Positions 7,400 to 12,913 of a DNA stretch of 32,000 nt are shown here, piece after piece. Below the pieces are notes generated by a model. That model ran no database searches and had not been told where the DNA came from. It saw nothing but the letters and a program-made list of their open reading frames with translations. Positions within the stretch are counted from its first letter, which is position 1. Every line of letters begins with the position of its first letter. Position numbers and translations under genes: made by a program. The stretch is from the NCBI RefSeq assembly GCF_020144665.1, contig NZ_JAAHBQ010000024.1, forward strand, positions 8,784 to 40,783, read 5' to 3'. Source of the DNA: Oscillatoria salina IIICB1. GTDB lineage: Bacteria; Cyanobacteriota; Cyanobacteriia; Cyanobacteriales; SIO1D9.

Positions 7400-8215
7400 T
7401 CAAATTTGTACGAATTCCTCTAAAAAACCTCGCTTTCCCAGTCGGGCTATGGAAGCTGCAACTGGTAATCTGGGACTGTCGAGAAGTTGTGCAATTTCGG
7501 TTACATCTGGCTGTCCAAATTGTTGAATTGTTTGTAAAACTTGGCGATCGAATATGACATTGCTAAATTCATTTTTCAGGATTGATTGAATTTGGGTAAT
7601 GACGATATTAGCATTATCAGCAGGGACACATTCACCACCAGTCAGAGTGGCGATCGCGTTAAAGGCTTCGTTCGTCAGGCGATCGCGCACCATAGACAAA
7701 CTATACACCTTCACCCGCTTATCTTCAGCCGTCGCCGTGACCAATTGTACATCTAAACCACTCGGACAACCATCGTGCCAGGAATCGCTACCTTTACCTA
7801 ATTTTACACCTCTATTTGTTTGCATCCATGCAGCAAAACCGTGAGGCGGCGCATCTCCTACCAAAATCGCAAAACGACAGCTATGTTTGCGCCAGCGCAT
7901 TTGCTGACAAGCATCCTCCACACCCCGGTAAACCGCCTCTGCACCATCGCCACCACCATCCGCCCTCAACTGGCGAATATGATTTTGCATCTTATGTAAA
8001 TTATCTGTCAAAGGATAGATGCGAGTAACAAAAGAAGTATCTTGCGGTGGATGATCGCGATATTCCACCAAACCCACTTGGAGATTGATATTATTGTCAG
8101 TGGAGAGAGTAGCGATCGCATTCAAAAGTTGTTGTTGGGCTACCTGAATAAAACTACCCATACTACCTGTAGTATCGACAACAAAACAAATATCAACATA
8201 ATTAAGACCCTTCAT
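7400..8215 (-). CDS. von Willebrand factor type A (vWA) domain protein with a C-terminal winged-helix-like tail
   Basis: MIDAS-type start 'DICFVVDTTGSMGSF', then 'GGGDGAEAV' and 'FAILVGDAPPHG'. Tail 'VTEIAQLLDSPRLPVAASIARLGKRGFLEE'. The ATG at 8215 has GGAGGAGGT 7 nt upstream (the ORF track begins one codon earlier at a TTG). Confidence 0.8.
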   Translation of the reverse strand: MKGLNYVDICFVVDTTGSMGSFIQVAQQQLLNAIATLSTDNNINLQVGLVEYRDHPPQDTSFVTRIYPLTDNLHKMQNHIRQLRADGGGDGAEAVYRGVEDACQQMRWRKHSCRFAILVGDAPPHGFAAWMQTNRGVKLGKGSDSWHDGCPSGLDVQLVTATAEDKRVKVYSLSMVRDRLTNEAFNAIATLTGGECVPADNANIVITQIQSILKNEFSNVIFDRQVLQTIQQFGQPDVTEIAQLLDSPRLPVAASIARLGKRGFLEEFVQI

Positions 8216-8326
8216 CAATTTTACCTCCTCCCAAAATAGATAAGCAAAATCTGATTTAATTAAAGCAAAAAAACAAACACCATTGAGTTAAAATAAAATC
8301 AAAACTAGCTATTTCATCTTACTCTC

Positions 8327-8680: not shown

Positions 8681-10180
<1,500 letters not shown>

Positions 10181-10200
10181 CTAAATATTCTGCTGATTTG

Positions 10201-10253
10201 CCGCGCAAGTTCAAGAAACTTTGCTAACAACATTTCTACTGATTAGGGCGCGA
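10201..10253 (-). ncRNA. Y-RNA-like module a: minimal hairpin with no apical insert
   Basis: Minus-strand RNA 5'-CGCGCCCUAAUCAGUAGAAAUGUUGUUAGCAAAGUUUCUUGAACUUGCGCG-3'. It has the same conserved arms (CGCGCCCUAAUC / AACUUGCGCG) as the larger modules, closed by a ~12-nt loop. Confidence 0.5.
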
Positions 10254-10283
10254 CGACAACTGCCAAAATTATGTAATTTGGTC

Positions 10284-10407
10284 ACTTCGCGCAAGTCAGG
10301 AAAGCTGTTGTTCACACACGGGATTTGAACCCGCAAATGATGGAATCTAAATCCATTGCCTTTTCCATTTGGCTAGTATGTAAGCTTCCCTGGTTAGGGC
10401 GCGAAGT
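10284..10407 (-). ncRNA. Y-RNA-like module b: conserved stem plus a normally ordered tRNA-like insert (anticodon-loop UAG)
   Basis: Terminal helix ACUUCGCGC/GCGCGAAGU. Second helix CAGGGAAGCU/AGCUUUCCUG. Insert: D arm GCC-AAAUGGAAAA-GGC, anticodon arm AUGGA-UUUAGAU-UCCAU, T arm GCGGG-UUCAAAU-CCCGU. Confidence 0.65.
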
Positions 10408-10528
10408 AAAATCAAATTCGGTTGATTAACTAAGTAAAGTTCCGAAACGTTCTAAGCTCAGTTTCGTAAGCTAGATTATCTAAATGATTGTCGATTATTC
10501 ACATTTTAGCTAATTTTTTTAAGCTCAT

Positions 10529-10712
10529 TTTCGCACAAGTTAAAAAAGCTGTCTTAACTTTACGCCCGTCGTACACCAGCTTTCACTAGCACTGGACACG
10601 CAAACTTCTTCTCGTTAGAGAGTGGGAATGATATCGCTAATTCGGTCGCCCGAATATCGCTACCTTAGGAGCGTTATTTTAGTTTGTAAGCTTTTTCGGT
10701 TGGGGTGCGAAA
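10529..10712 (-). ncRNA. Y-RNA-like module c: conserved stem plus a ~140-nt insert resembling 23S rRNA domain IV (H69-H71 region)
   Basis: Terminal helix UUUCGCAC/GUGCGAAA. The insert contains AUAACGCUCCUAAGGUAGCGAUAUUC (complement of 10652-10677). From memory, this matches E. coli 23S AUAACGGUCCUAAGGUAGCGAAAUUC at 24 of 26 positions. A UUCGG-GCGA-CCGAA GNRA hairpin follows. Confidence 0.6.
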
Positions 10713-10804
10713 TAACTCCTTTTTTTAGTTAGTCTTTTCTTCTTTCGTATCCTTCATTTAAAAAATTGGCTATTTCGACCAAAAATAAGTTGGAAAATAA
10801 TTAC

Positions 10805-10924
10805 TTCACGCAAGTTGAAAAAGCTGTTGTTTTATACACAGGAGTCGAACCTGTTACTCTCTGCTTATGAGTCAGATGCTCTACCAATGAGCTAGTATGT
10901 AAGCTTCTTCGGTTAGGGCGCGAA
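10805..10924 (-). ncRNA. Y-RNA-like module d: conserved stem plus a normally ordered tRNA-like insert (anticodon-loop CAU)
   Basis: Terminal helix UUCGCGC/GCGUGAA (one G-U pair). Insert: D arm GCUC-AUUGGUA-GAGC, anticodon arm UCUGA-CUCAUAA-GCAGA, T arm ACAGG-UUCGACU-CCUGU. Confidence 0.65.
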
Positions 10925-11114
10925 TTAAATTTCATTTTTTAGATAACAATCGATTTTGTTTTCATTTCTTCTAGTTTTATTGAAGTTTTTGGGTTTATTT
11001 ACAAATGAGTGAGGCAAGATAAGTTATCTACAAACTCAACTTTTTCTTTGCTTTTAGTTAAACTGAGATTATTCTCAGAATGACCAGGAAAACAAACGAA
11101 TTTTAAATGGTTAG

Positions 11115-11253
11115 CCCGCGCAAGTTTATAAAGCTGTAAACAACGATCGCCGCTCTACCTAACTGAGCTAATTTCCCAACTGGAAAATATAGGATTTGAA
11201 CCTATGTCAAACGAATTCCAAATGTGTGTAAGCTTTACAGATTAGGGCGCGGG
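11115..11253 (-). ncRNA. Y-RNA-like module e: conserved stem plus a circularly permuted tRNA-like insert (YrlA-type)
   Basis: Terminal helix CCCGCGC/GCGCGGG. Insert order on the RNA: T arm AUAGG-UUCAAAU-CCUAU, acceptor 3' strand AUUUUCC, AGUU loop, acceptor 5' strand GGGAAAU, UA, D arm GCUC-AGUUAGGUA-GAGC. Confidence 0.65.
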
Positions 11254-11268
11254 AGATAAAGTTTTAAT

Positions 11269-11748
11269 TTAGTTTTGAGCTTGATAAGCTGCTCGGATTT
11301 TTCTAGATTTTATCTCACCACGTGCTAAACAACGAGGACAACCGCAGGGTTTTCTACCATGTGCAGTGGGGAAATATCGCCAACCAACTATTTGTGGTAA
11401 ATATCTGGCTTTACGAATTTCTCTTGCTTGGATTTTTCGCGGAATAATTACTTCGTAGCCGCTAGAATTTCCTAGTTTCATCAAGAGTGAGTTGGCTTCG
11501 TTTGCCGTCATTTCTTGATGTCTTTGATTGAAGTAACCTACTGAAACTATTTCGTTGTTTGGAATACGAAAGTAAATTCCGTAGATAGTTTTTGTGCCAT
11601 CGCGTTTGAGTTCTCGTAACCATTGATGTGAGGTATAAAAGTTAGGTAAGACTGGCATTGCATAAACGCCGTTGTTACTAATTTTGATACCTGTTCGCAG
11701 AATTGATTTTAACTTTTTTTCTGCGGTTAAATGGACAAAGGTAGTCAT
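11269..11748 (-). CDS. Hypothetical 159-aa protein embedded in the RNA array (possible H-Y-E ADP-ribosyltransferase-fold; Cys cluster and basic tail)
   Basis: Only substantial ORF between 10115 and 12551. ATG at 11748. It has 'FVHLTAEKKLKSILRTGI', 'IYGIYFRIP' and 'GYEVIIPRK', then 'CGCPRCLARGEIKSRKIRAAY'. No family was recognised with certainty. Confidence 0.6.
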   Translation of the reverse strand: MTTFVHLTAEKKLKSILRTGIKISNNGVYAMPVLPNFYTSHQWLRELKRDGTKTIYGIYFRIPNNEIVSVGYFNQRHQEMTANEANSLLMKLGNSSGYEVIIPRKIQAREIRKARYLPQIVGWRYFPTAHGRKPCGCPRCLARGEIKSRKIRAAYQAQN

Positions 11749-11781
11749 GAAATATCTGATTTAAGTGGAAGAAAAGGTTAC

Positions 11782-11900
11782 TTCGCGCAAGTTGAAAAAG
11801 CTGTTGTGTTATACAGGGGAATCGAACCCCTATCACCTGGTTAATAGCCAGTTGCTCTACCAATGAGCTAGTATGTAAGCTTTATCGGTTGGGGCGCGAA
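11782..11900 (-). ncRNA. Y-RNA-like module f: conserved stem plus a normally ordered tRNA-like insert (anticodon-loop AUU)
   Basis: Terminal helix UUCGCGC/GCGCGAA. Insert: D arm GCUC-AUUGGUA-GAGC (identical to module d), anticodon arm CUGG-CUAUUAA-CCAG, T arm AGGGG-UUCGAUU-CCCCU. Confidence 0.65.
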
Positions 11901-11927
11901 TTAACTCGCATGAAGCAAGAAGTTTTT

Positions 11928-12205
11928 GCTAAAATTGATGGAGATTTTTGGCTTTGCTCAGAATGACATTTTTGAGTTTTTTGGTAGTAGCTAAAATTGA
12001 TGGAGATTCTACTCCTACTCGCTTCGCGAGAAGCTTCGCAACGGAGAACGCTACGCGAACGCTTCGCTCAGAATGACAACTTTGAATTTTTTTGAGTTTT
12101 AGCTATGGAGATTCTATTCCTACTCGCTTCGCGAGAAGCTTCGCAACGGAGAACGCTACGCGAACGCTTTGCTCAGAATGACATTTTTGACTTTTTTGGT
12201 AGTAA
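11928..12205. repeat. Three tandem copies of a ~60-110 nt unit; copies 2 and 3 carry a ~52-nt GC-rich miniature element absent from copy 1
   Basis: Copies start at 11928, 11990 and 12102 (GCTA(AAATTGA)TGGAGATT...GCTCAGAATGACA...TTTTGG). Copies 2 and 3 contain CTACTCCTACTCGCTTCGCGAGAAGCTTCGCAACGGAGAACGCTACGCGAAC, where copy 1 has only TTTG. Confidence 0.8.
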
Positions 12206-12256
12206 CTAACATCTATAGTAATAGGAGATGATTTGTGACAAGATTTAATTTTCTGG

Positions 12257-12286
12257 TGTAGAGACGTTGCGTGCAACGTCTCTACA
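12257..12286. repeat. Perfect 14-bp-arm palindrome TGTAGAGACGTTGC-GT-GCAACGTCTCTACA (dispersed cyanobacterial palindromic element type)
   Basis: Read directly. Its translation gives the 'VETLHATSLH' string in the spurious ORF 12103-12297. A truncated relative (TGTAGAGAG...CTCTCTACA) occurs at 26588-26617. Confidence 0.85.
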
Positions 12287-12321
12287 AACAATGACATTTT
12301 TGGTCATAGTTTTAATGTTGA

Positions 12322-12471
12322 TTCCGCACAAGTTAAAAAAGCTGTTTTTACATTTGACGCTCTATCCTTTGAGCTACAACGGCTTAAAATGCCGTTGGTA
12401 GGACTCGAACCTACAACCTCCCGTTTAGCAGACGGAAAATGTTTGTATGCTTCCTCGGTTGGGGTACGGAA
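12322..12471 (-). ncRNA. Y-RNA-like module g: conserved stem plus a circularly permuted tRNA-like insert (YrlA-type)
   Basis: Terminal helix UUCCGUAC/GUGCGGAA (one G-U pair). Connector ACAUUU/AAAUGU. Insert order: hairpin CCGU-CUGCUAA-ACGG, T arm GUAGG-UUCGAGU-CCUAC, acceptor 3' strand CAACGGC, AUUUUAA loop, acceptor 5' strand GCCGUUG (perfect 7 bp), UA, D arm GCUC-AAAGGAUA-GAGC. Confidence 0.7.
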
Positions 12472-12551
12472 ATTAAACTTTTTACTGGTTAAAAAAGATT
12501 GAGAGTAAGCTTGATTTTTTTAGATCTTGCTATCTAAAATTTGGGCTTAAT

Positions 12552-12779
<228 letters not shown>

Positions 12780-12884
12780 TTAAAATAGAGCAGTTTTTTG
12801 GTTATGAGATTGTTTGCTTGATAAAACTTTGATTTATTTTTGCTTGTGGTGGTTTTCAGCTTGTTTGCTTGTGCCACTAAATTT

Positions 12885-12913
12885 ATACTACATAAATAAT
12901 ACAAGAGTGTCAA
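12885..12913 (-). promoter_or_regulatory. Sigma-70-type promoter on the minus strand (TTGACA - 17 nt - TAGTAT)
   Basis: Minus strand: TTGACA is the complement of 12908-12913, the spacer is 17 nt, and TAGTAT is the complement of 12885-12890. It points toward the 66-aa ORF and the RNA array. Confidence 0.5.

Follow-up and report, generated by a model that had tools for sequence, protein, structure and literature searches.

The DNA analysed here is a 32,000-nucleotide (nt) stretch of Oscillatoria salina IIICB1 (contig NZ_JAAHBQ010000024.1, assembly GCF_020144665.1), referred to below as the window. It contains seven RNA units (a-g) located upstream of a gene encoding a 477-aa protein for which a Ro60-like fold is predicted. 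All the relevant elements are on the minus strand, and the order of transcription is orf66 (a 66-aa open reading frame, ORF), unit g, a repeat-rich spacer, unit f, a 159-aa ORF, unit e, units d, c, b and a, and finally the 477-aa ORF. Motif searches revealed that the seven units share a common frame (5' CGYRCCCYAAYC ... AACUUGYGYG 3'), of which far fewer copies would be expected in the window by chance. The analysis focuses on units e and g, in which a carrier stem bears a circularly permuted tRNA-like body. Both are contained in the range 11115-12471, which also holds unit f (a non-permuted tRNA-like element), the 159-aa ORF and the spacer.

Structure of units e and g

On the minus strand, the elements of unit g (5' end of the RNA at 12468) follow one another in this order: the connector ACAUUU, the hairpin (U)CCGU-CUGCUAA-ACGG(G), the nucleotides AGGUU, a T arm, an acceptor helix of 7 bp capped by a 7-nt loop, the dinucleotide UA, a D arm, the nucleotides GUC and the second connector strand, AAAUGU. 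In unit e (RNA 5' end at 11251) a closing helix (UCGUU/GGCGA) is followed by a variable loop, a T arm, a 7-bp acceptor helix capped by a 4-nt loop, U8-A9 and a D arm (Table 1). Every element that the first-pass annotation of this DNA had listed for the two units was found base for base. Minimum free energy folding recovered the T arm, the capped helix and the D arm in both cases, with z-scores of -3.7 for unit g and -1.7 for unit e.

Homologous loci (29 genomic and 80 metagenomic) were gathered via the 477-aa protein, and cores comprising the T arm, the next 7 nt, the cap, a further 7 nt, UA and the D arm were extracted from them without alignment. This analysis yielded 35 distinct cores of the e/g kind from approximately 110 related loci. 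The capped acceptor helix is 7 bp long in every core, and 241 of its 245 cells are paired, in 28 different helices, as against a mean of 158 and a maximum of 180 paired cells when the partner strands were shuffled among units. MAFFT alignments were then used, one containing 21 g-type units (A3) and the other 15 e-type units (A4). RNAalifold, run on both without structure input, predicted the same helices. Standard pairs occupy 93.8% (A3) and 94.7% (A4) of the cells, and 21 pairs are changed on both sides in each alignment. None of 500 shuffles matched the observed values in A3 or A4, save for the measure "further pair types" on A4 (2/500), while slid controls were only 31-49% paired. Compensatory changes were detected at 7/7 pairs of the capped acceptor helix and 3/5 pairs of the T stem in both classes, at 5/5 pairs of the closing helix in the e type and at 4/5 pairs of the hairpin stem in the g type.

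The strongest single result is the covariation of the Levitt pair 15:48, in which position 15 is the second base of the D loop and position 48 the base preceding the T stem. Across the 35 cores it is A:U in 23, G:C in 11 and U:A in one, with no discordant case. In addition, units e and g keep U8, A14, G18G19, the UUCRA T loop and G53:C61. The pair G1:C72 is present in 28/35 cores, and position 73 is a purine in most of the listed cap loops. The T and acceptor helices of both units are supported by covariation, and the modules should adopt the tRNA L-shape. Two earlier proposals, that the 3' half of the tRNA precedes the 5' half and that the 7-bp acceptor helix is closed by a loop, are borne out by these data.

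The hairpin retained by unit g had been described as resembling either an anticodon arm or a long variable arm. In the 17 cores that carry it, this hairpin has exactly 5 bp and a 7-nt loop and is placed exactly 5 nt ahead of the T stem. The loop contains Y32 in 16/17, U33 in 16/17 and a purine at position 37 in 13/17 cores, and a canonical AGGUY variable loop follows. Because of this geometry, the Y32-U33 dinucleotide and the AGGUY sequence, the hairpin was classified as an anticodon-arm mimic, and the class-II long variable arm was rejected on the same grounds. The anticodon position is occupied by 13 different triplets among the 17 cores. Unit g is a complete four-armed tRNA body, which the carrier helix enters at position 26 (the D/anticodon hinge).

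The arrangement characteristic of YrlA, an RNA of the bacterial Y RNA group, consists of a T arm, capped acceptor, UA and D arm within an anticodon-like closing helix. Unit e has this design in full: its closing helix of 5 bp takes the place of the anticodon stem and continues into the carrier, so that the break falls in the anticodon loop, and no such loop is present. The T, acceptor-like and D elements recur in unit g, where, however, the closing helix is found at position 26 and there is an additional complete anticodon arm. Thus, the YrlA-type topology originally attributed to both units applies strictly to unit e only, while unit g represents a different permutation. The structures and the covariation agree with the view that the long stem enters on the anticodon/position-26 side. 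The tertiary nucleotides and the 15:48 covariation expected of YrlA were found as well.

Table 1. Positions of the two permuted units, their elements and the surrounding features in the window.
Feature	Position	Strand	Evidence or remark
Unit g, framed RNA of 144 nt: carrier stem and complete circularly permuted tRNA-like body	12325-12468	-	frame motifs, fold, covariation
Unit g, anticodon-arm mimic UCCGU-CUGCUAA-ACGGG	12420-12436	-	4/5 pairs compensatory
Unit g, 5-nt variable loop AGGUU	12415-12419	-	
Unit g, T arm GUAGG-UUCGAGU-CCUAC	12398-12414	-	read, folded, covariation
Unit g, capped acceptor CAACGGC-AUUUUAA-GCCGUUG, perfect 7 bp	12377-12397	-	all 7 pairs compensatory, 99.3% of cells paired
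Unit g, UA and D arm GCUC-AAAGGAUA-GAGC	12359-12376	-	stem invariant in 21/21; A15 pairs with U48
Unit g, connector 3' strand AAAUGU, pairing with ACAUUU at 12437-12442	12350-12355	-	read directly
Unit e, framed RNA of 135 nt: carrier stem and YrlA-topology permuted tRNA-like domain	11117-11251	-	frame motifs, fold, YrlA model, covariation
Unit e, T arm AUAGG-UUCAAAU-CCUAU	11189-11205	-	read directly, folded; 3/5 stem pairs compensatory
Unit e, capped acceptor AUUUUCC-AGUU-GGGAAAU, 7 bp including one G-U	11171-11188	-	all 7 pairs compensatory, 96% of cells paired
Unit e, UA (U8 A9) and D arm GCUC-AGUUAGGUA-GAGC	11152-11170	-	stem invariant in 15/15; G15 pairs with C48
Unit e, closing (anticodon-stem-like) helix, 3' strand; partner UCGUU at 11210-11214	11146-11151	-	all 5 pairs compensatory
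orf66, 66-aa ORF opening the operon (orf66, RNA array, Ro60-like gene)	12552-12752	-	tblastn, homologue search
Unit f, non-permuted tRNA-like, same carrier stem	11784-11898	-	Rfam tRNA 49.1 bits; frame motifs
159-aa ORF between units f and e	11269-11748	-	
Units a-d, same carrier stem	10202-10922	-	
Unit d, non-permuted tRNA-like	10807-10922	-	
Unit c, 23S H69-H71-like insert	10532-10709	-	
Unit b, non-permuted tRNA-like	10288-10403	-	
Unit a, mini hairpin on carrier stem	10202-10252	-	
477-aa protein with predicted Ro60 fold, presumed RNA partner	8681-10114	-	AlphaFold model, Foldseek
Separate 272-aa vWA-domain protein, downstream of the Ro60-like gene	7400-8218	-	

Carrier stem, predicted protein partner and other modules

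The carrier stem is composed of a terminal helix of 5-7 bp, an asymmetric loop (5' CCYAAY / 3' RACUU), a helix of 8-9 bp and the sequence UACAHAC. A regular-expression search for the frame detected 325 framed units in 96 of the 110 sources containing the protein gene, nearly always upstream of it and on the same strand, with up to 9 units per locus. These units are conserved from cyanobacteria to Acidobacteriota. Permuted and non-permuted tRNA mimics occur together in 37 loci, which extends to the related loci the earlier observation that both designs share one stem in one locus. Comparison of 292 distinct units showed that the 5' motif CC-Y-R-A-Y is invariant and that the positions following it are variable.

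The helices of the carrier covary, while its asymmetric loop is nearly invariant. In viral contigs encoding a protein with 47-51% identity, the terminal helix is replaced (e.g. by CUGUC/GACAG) and the loop CCCYAC/AACUUG is retained; the exact cyanobacterial frame pattern was not found in these contigs, where the diverged frame was recognized by inspection. Conservation of the loop, combined with covarying or exchanged helices, is the pattern to be expected for a protein-recognition site. The 3' sequence ACUUG of the carrier resembles the 3' strand of the Rfam YrlA consensus.

The product of the 477-aa ORF is 100% identical to a database entry named "vWA domain-containing protein [Oscillatoria salina]". 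An AlphaFold model built with 31 homologues (pLDDT 76, pTM 0.67) contains a helical-repeat ring and, after it, a vWA domain with a MIDAS motif of the DxSxS type, whose residues D300, S302 and S304 are invariant. In a Foldseek search, the top seven PDB matches were all Ro60 structures (1yvp, 9nep, 2i91, 9nf8, 1yvr, 9nen and 9l5y). These proteins, of Xenopus, human and phage origin, were matched over the full length (TM 0.61-0.68, E 1e-9 to 1e-6), and the matches that followed were vWA domains or unrelated repeats only. When the family profile was compared with PDB sequences, only the Ro60 of phage phiLo was detected, and weakly (E 1.3e-3). The presence of a predicted Ro60 fold beside the array lends support to the Y-RNA interpretation proposed in the first-pass annotation. 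Units e and g are located 1.0 kb and 2.2 kb upstream of this gene, on the same strand, and thus within the 4 kb from a Ro60 (Rsr) gene expected for YrlA, the Ro60 identity being in this case that of a predicted fold.

The family of the 477-aa protein is large, with 2,978 matches at E<=1e-3 among word-filtered candidates in the protein search and 515 confirmed metagenome stretches. Relatives with 46-51% identity are encoded in the IMG/VR contigs L111-L119 (37-390 kb), in which the Ro60-like genes adjoin mixed genuine-looking tRNA genes and framed tRNA mimics. The RNA array is linked to the Ro60-fold gene across phyla and in the viral contigs.

The first ORF of the operon, orf66 (its sequence includes RPEAVYG), has 917 database homologues, and tblastn identified it in 71 related loci, upstream of the array and on the same strand. 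It belongs to no Pfam family. Its predicted model is confident and small, with a beta-beta-alpha-beta-beta arrangement, for which Foldseek found nothing significant in the PDB (best E 0.9, a weak PB1/ubiquitin-like resemblance). Apart from orf66, no gene of the types sought (nuclease, toxin, RNA ligase, signalling) was found to be conserved with the locus, and the PADLOC defence models matched none of its proteins. Searches of Pfam, NCBIfam and PADLOC with the 477-aa, 66-aa and 159-aa ORFs gave nothing useful.

The 272-aa vWA-domain protein accompanies the locus in 8 related loci only. The 159-aa ORF, without a family match, is found otherwise only in the closest relative, L001 (92% identical), and looks recently inserted. 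The spacer between units f and g (positions 11928-12212, in plus-strand coordinates, and 12256-12290) contains two to three copies of a repeat of approximately 105 nt, with a strong hairpin (GUAGAGACGUUGC/GCAACGUCUCUAC) close by. This repeat carries the 15-mer GAACGCTACGCGAAC, which is also present, on the opposite strand, in T-loop insertions of loci L009 and L096.

Units b, d and f are annotated by ARAGORN and Rfam as tRNA-Leu(UAG), tRNA-Met(CAU) and tRNA-Asn(AUU), respectively. However, these three units are called tRNA genes despite sharing one acceptor 5' strand, UACAUAC, which is part of the frame and is imperfectly paired. Their orthologues differ chiefly in the anticodon triplet. They are probably mimics annotated as tRNA genes. 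Arrays of high-scoring tRNA genes are located directly upstream of a framed array in two loci from cyanobacterial metagenomes (about 25 genes in L099, 184-3075, and 4 in L084, 1-466).

Two further classes of permuted module were observed in the related loci. In the D-loop-entry class the order is GGUAGAGC, anticodon arm, T arm, capped acceptor and UAGCUCAG, while in the reduced class the D stem is missing and the module is limited to UGGUAAC, an anticodon arm, a T arm and the capped acceptor. Examples of these classes are found in L006 (4373-4506 and 4546-4669), L007 (3129-3263), L011 (2808-2941), L020 (3339-3477), L002 (4086-4219), L004 (5396-5520) and others. Several module classes also have the 7-nt T loop replaced by an insertion of approximately 24-30 nt with two mini-hairpins (e.g. 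U-ACCCUUCGGGAA-CGCCUACGGCG-AAC-GAGU), whose stems covary by eye. Such an insertion would abolish the usual U55-C56 elbow contact. It was identified in L006 (4767-4931), L012 (3265-3429), L028 (1291-1455), L009 (4946-5097), L017 (2394-2548), L108 (3749-3910), L066 (2285-2444) and L096 (396-549).

The unit nearest the start codon of the Ro60-like gene is usually a mini form of 50-75 nt, consisting of the carrier and a short hairpin without a tRNA- or rRNA-like module; 62 such units were counted, including unit a of the window and L006 5868-5938.

Other framed units resemble parts of 23S rRNA. The c-type units, with inserts of 170-185 nt on the carrier stem resembling helix 69 and the strand that follows it (e.g. 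UCGUAACUAUAACGG-UCAUAAGGUAGCGA), match positions 1910-1943 (H69-H71) of E. coli 23S rRNA at 90-100% identity (blastn). Unit c of the window has lost most of the H69 hairpin; its relatives include L002 4664-4842, L020 3137-3315, L022 3392-3570, L052 1809-1991 and L063 4127-4310. In four loci, framed units of approximately 200 nt match E. coli 23S 1064-1090, the GTPase-associated centre (L084 8911-9107, L079 4096-4295, L090 7605-7804 and L092 6581-6782). Those of L084, L090 and L092 sit downstream of the Ro60-like gene. The L084 unit scored 55.9 bits with the Rfam LSU model (gathering score 50) and also contains AGUACGAGAGGA, matching the sarcin-ricin loop sequence AGUACGAGAGGACC (E. coli 23S position 2656), a combination reminiscent of the factor-binding site of the 50S subunit in miniature.

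Functional interpretation

The computational results, which show the RNA folds, their covariation, the fold of the protein and the linkage in the genome, lead us to assign units e and g, with a probability of roughly three in four, to an array of Y-RNA-like noncoding RNAs in which every member combines the carrier stem with an effector module, tRNA-shaped in these two units. As regards protein binding, enzyme recognition and cellular role, we infer that the carrier stem would bind the product of the neighbouring downstream gene, the Ro60-fold protein. In that case units e and g would be RNA subunits of a Ro60-like ribonucleoprotein (RNP), offering a tRNA-shaped body to tRNA-recognizing proteins. 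The modules would present the elbow and the acceptor arm (in unit g the anticodon loop too) while tethered to the Ro60-like ring, and could serve to tether an effector or to gate the cavity, as for known Y RNAs. By analogy with the YrlA of Mycobacterium smegmatis, RNase P may nick the cap loop of both units; the exact 7-bp helix, G1:C72 and the purine at position 73 make such cleavage plausible.

Several observations weigh against this interpretation. The z-score of the single-sequence fold of unit e is weak. The connector helix of unit g is short, and its register varies between homologues (65.7% of cells paired). The D stem (GCUC/GAGC), although always paired, is invariant and thus yields no covariation evidence. 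Assignment of the 477-aa protein to the Ro60 fold relies on a model of medium confidence: no Pfam TROVE domain was detected in this ORF even at E values up to 10, nor was there a match to the NCBIfam Ro model. A scan of positions 10100-12900 identified no sigma-70 promoters or intrinsic terminators above shuffles on the RNA strand, and no RtcB, RtcA or PNPase genes are present in the window.

Comparison with the Rfam YrlA model (RF02553), suggested in the first-pass annotation, gave a mixed result. The T, acceptor-like and D elements of the model were aligned to both units (unit e: 37.8 bits, E 7e-6, model positions 1-114; unit g: 32.1 bits, E 3e-4, model positions 27-81), but neither score reaches the gathering threshold of 69 bits. 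At this threshold, no YrlA was identified in the window and 23 related loci, where only tRNA matches on the non-permuted units were obtained. Moreover, the GNCGAAN0-1G (CGAA) motif of the 5' strand is not conserved in the carrier stem and is absent from unit e (the 5' strands compared were CGCGCCCUAAUCUGUAAAGC of unit e and CGUACCCCAACCGAGGAAGC of unit g). On account of the sub-threshold scores and the lack of CGAA conservation, units e and g are placed outside the curated Rfam family and classed as a separate bacterial Y RNA variant, which resembles YrlA in design.

The proposed tethering role may be questioned without any change to the structures. The array could be a panel of decoys or sentinels, mimicking RNA sites attacked by toxins (anticodon loops and bodies of tRNAs, 23S H69-H71, and the GTPase centre with the sarcin-ricin loop) and displayed on the Ro60-like platform. 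Units e and g would then act as bait for tRNA-targeting nucleases or modifying enzymes (of phages, competitors or toxin-antitoxin systems), either absorbing them or reporting the damage via the Ro60-like/vWA protein. The resemblance of framed units to several hot spots of the translation RNAs (23S 1910-1943 and 1064-1090, and the sarcin-ricin loop) is in keeping with such a role, as are the occurrence of protein relatives in viral contigs beside tRNA arrays and the hypervariability of the anticodon-like triplets even in close relatives. However, a lack of constraint explains the variable triplets equally well, and unit e exposes no anticodon loop. Since, in addition, the locus has no conserved nuclease, toxin, RNA ligase or signalling gene and no protein recognized by PADLOC, we consider this role possible but rather doubtful. 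Another function, that of a processing handle by which RNase III, RNase E or RNase P excises the modules from a polycistron, with the Ro60-like gene loosely linked, seems improbable. The head-to-tail arrangement of the units on one strand, between two ORFs and without detected promoters or terminators of their own, would suit it, and the way in which the stem prolongs the acceptor helix of the non-permuted units recalls leader-trailer pairing. On the other hand, it is the unpaired asymmetric loop that is most conserved, with covarying helices on either side, as is typical of protein recognition; helices of 5 and 8 bp are short for RNase III; and the linkage to the Ro60-fold gene persists across phyla and in viral contigs.

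It is highly improbable that units e and g are genuine permuted tRNA genes, whose transcripts would be circularized and then opened at the acceptor loop, as in Cyanidioschyzon merolae. The loop over the acceptor end does correspond to the algal layout (PMC3978253), and in unit g the four arms are all there, the acceptor has 7 bp and the pair G1:C72, position 73 is a purine and U33 lies in an anticodon loop of 7 nt. However, permuted tRNA genes are known only in algae and one archaeon and need a bulge-helix-bulge (BHB) motif and a splicing endonuclease (PMC3978253), while the junction in units e and g is formed by a long conserved stem interrupted by an internal loop of 7/5 nt. Furthermore, unit e lacks an anticodon loop, the occurrence of 13 triplets among g-type orthologues is at odds with a decoding role, and neither unit is called by ARAGORN or the Rfam tRNA model. 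Chance or decay can be given almost no weight. Dimeric tRNAs may mimic YrlA in scoring (PMC4201824), and genuine tRNA arrays adjoin some related loci (e.g. L099 and L111), so that a T arm and the D arm of the next gene might have been left by tandem tRNA genes, or the units might be functionless tRNA-derived debris. Against this, the acceptor-like helix abuts the T stem and UA exactly, is 7 bp long in 35/35 cores and covaries at 7/7 pairs, the tertiary pair 15:48 covaries, and the units and their frame are conserved from cyanobacteria to Acidobacteriota. An origin as tandem-tRNA remnants is excluded by the covariation.

A wider and more speculative possibility is an undescribed RNP system with two proteins, a divergent Ro60-like one and a conserved 66-aa partner, and a genome-encoded library of up to 9 scaffold RNAs. 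These RNAs would each mimic a different part of the translation machinery (a tRNA attached via its acceptor end, anticodon loop, position 26 or D-loop, or else 23S H69-H71 or the GTPase centre and sarcin-ricin loop). Together they would form a panel baiting or sensing enzymes that target tRNA or rRNA (for example toxins, nucleases of phages, or enzymes of modification or repair). Cyanobacteria, some other phyla and large phages would have the system in common.

The permuted, loop-capped tRNA-like design is already known from YrlA. In the literature found, which did not cover key reviews and the supplement of the 2014 survey, there was no description of the carrier stem, the Ro60-like partner or the 66-aa ORF. 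The same literature, with the same limit of coverage, contained none of arrays of up to 9 units, position-26 or D-loop permutations, or co-resident rRNA mimics. The bacterial Y RNAs known so far are tRNA-like and occur singly or in pairs next to a recognizable Ro60 gene. Here, a Ro60-type protein missed by standard profiles is widespread in cyanobacteria, and one putative protein-binding stem can bear many alternative effector modules. Within one array, the tRNA body is offered in at least four attachment topologies, beside mimics of functional sites of rRNA. Such a natural series can be exploited directly in experiments to learn which face of the tRNA mimic is important and by which cellular or phage factors it is recognized, and it suggests that Ro60 RNPs may engage the translation apparatus far more broadly than thought.

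Comparison with known systems

Units e and g differ from canonical tRNAs in that their acceptor ends are joined by a loop. Of the window units, ARAGORN calls only b, d and f, and the Rfam tRNA model gave 25.9 bits on a part of unit g (threshold 29) and nothing on unit e. A bacterial tRNA-like domain, with T arm, acceptor stem and reduced D region, is also known from transfer-messenger RNA (tmRNA), in which permutation of the gene is likewise tolerated, as in the two-piece form encoded by circularly permuted ssrA genes. In tmRNA, the CCA end is free and alanylated and a tag reading frame is present; by contrast, the acceptor end of units e and g is sealed and they have no reading frame.

The permuted tRNA genes of C. 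merolae, other algae and Thermofilum pendens share with units e and g the leading 3' half and the loop over the acceptor, and the junctions in those genes lie in the anticodon loop, the D-loop or elsewhere, as do the several break points in the array family (PMC3978253). The permuted tRNA genes, however, yield functional tRNAs via BHB-dependent circularization (PMC3978253). In units e and g, from a bacterial host, the anticodons are variable or missing and the junction is formed by the carrier stem with its 7/5-nt internal loop, instead of a BHB.

The tRNA-like Yrn1 of Deinococcus radiodurans has the opposite orientation, with the Ro-binding stem at the acceptor position, and contains a D-like region, an anticodon-like arm and a T arm (PMC4201824). 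In this respect it is similar to units b, d and f, but its D arm is incomplete and its anticodon-like loop has 6 nt. Yrn1 and YrlA were thought to have evolved independently, whereas here both orientations share one frame in one array. The Ro60 of Thermus phage phiLo, the sole solved structure detected at the sequence level (E 1e-3), is approximately 14% identical to the window protein; its gene likewise has several Y-like RNAs just upstream, and RNA binding and a complex with PNPase have been demonstrated (PMC12135203). The phiLo RNAs Yrl1 and Yrl2 differ in that they were identified via the CGAA bulge motif and are not described in that work as tRNA mimics (PMC12135203).

The closest likeness in element order is to YrlA of Salmonella Typhimurium, M. 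smegmatis and many other bacteria and phages. The topology of YrlA is established and the RNA is modified by TruB and DusA, and the 7-bp acceptor stem of the M. smegmatis form makes it an RNase P substrate (PMC4201824; 10.1101/312249). In Ro60/Y RNA complexes the stem binds the outer surface of the ring, and the second module serves as a tether for an effector or as a gate to the cavity (PMC4201824; 10.1101/312249; PMC12135203). Covariation at 15:48 was used by Chen et al. as an argument for the tRNA-like fold of YrlA, with the caution that dimeric tRNAs can be false positives (PMC4201824), and the GNCGAA/CGAA motif marks the Ro60-binding modules of known bacterial and phage Y RNAs (PMC4201824; PMC12135203). 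Units e and g resemble YrlA in the order of elements from the closing stem to the D arm, in the conserved tertiary nucleotides and R15:Y48 covariation, in the distance of approximately 1-2.5 kb from a Ro60-type gene on the same strand and, as regards the M. smegmatis RNA, in the 7-bp acceptor stem. They differ from it in scoring about half the Rfam gathering threshold, in having the loop CCYAAY/RACUU in the presumed protein-binding stem in place of a conserved GNCGAA motif, and in their putative partner, a divergent Ro60 missed by TROVE profiles. Finally, the loci described here contain up to 9 units, compared with one or two for YrlA, and unit g is further distinguished by a full anticodon arm and by attachment at position 26.

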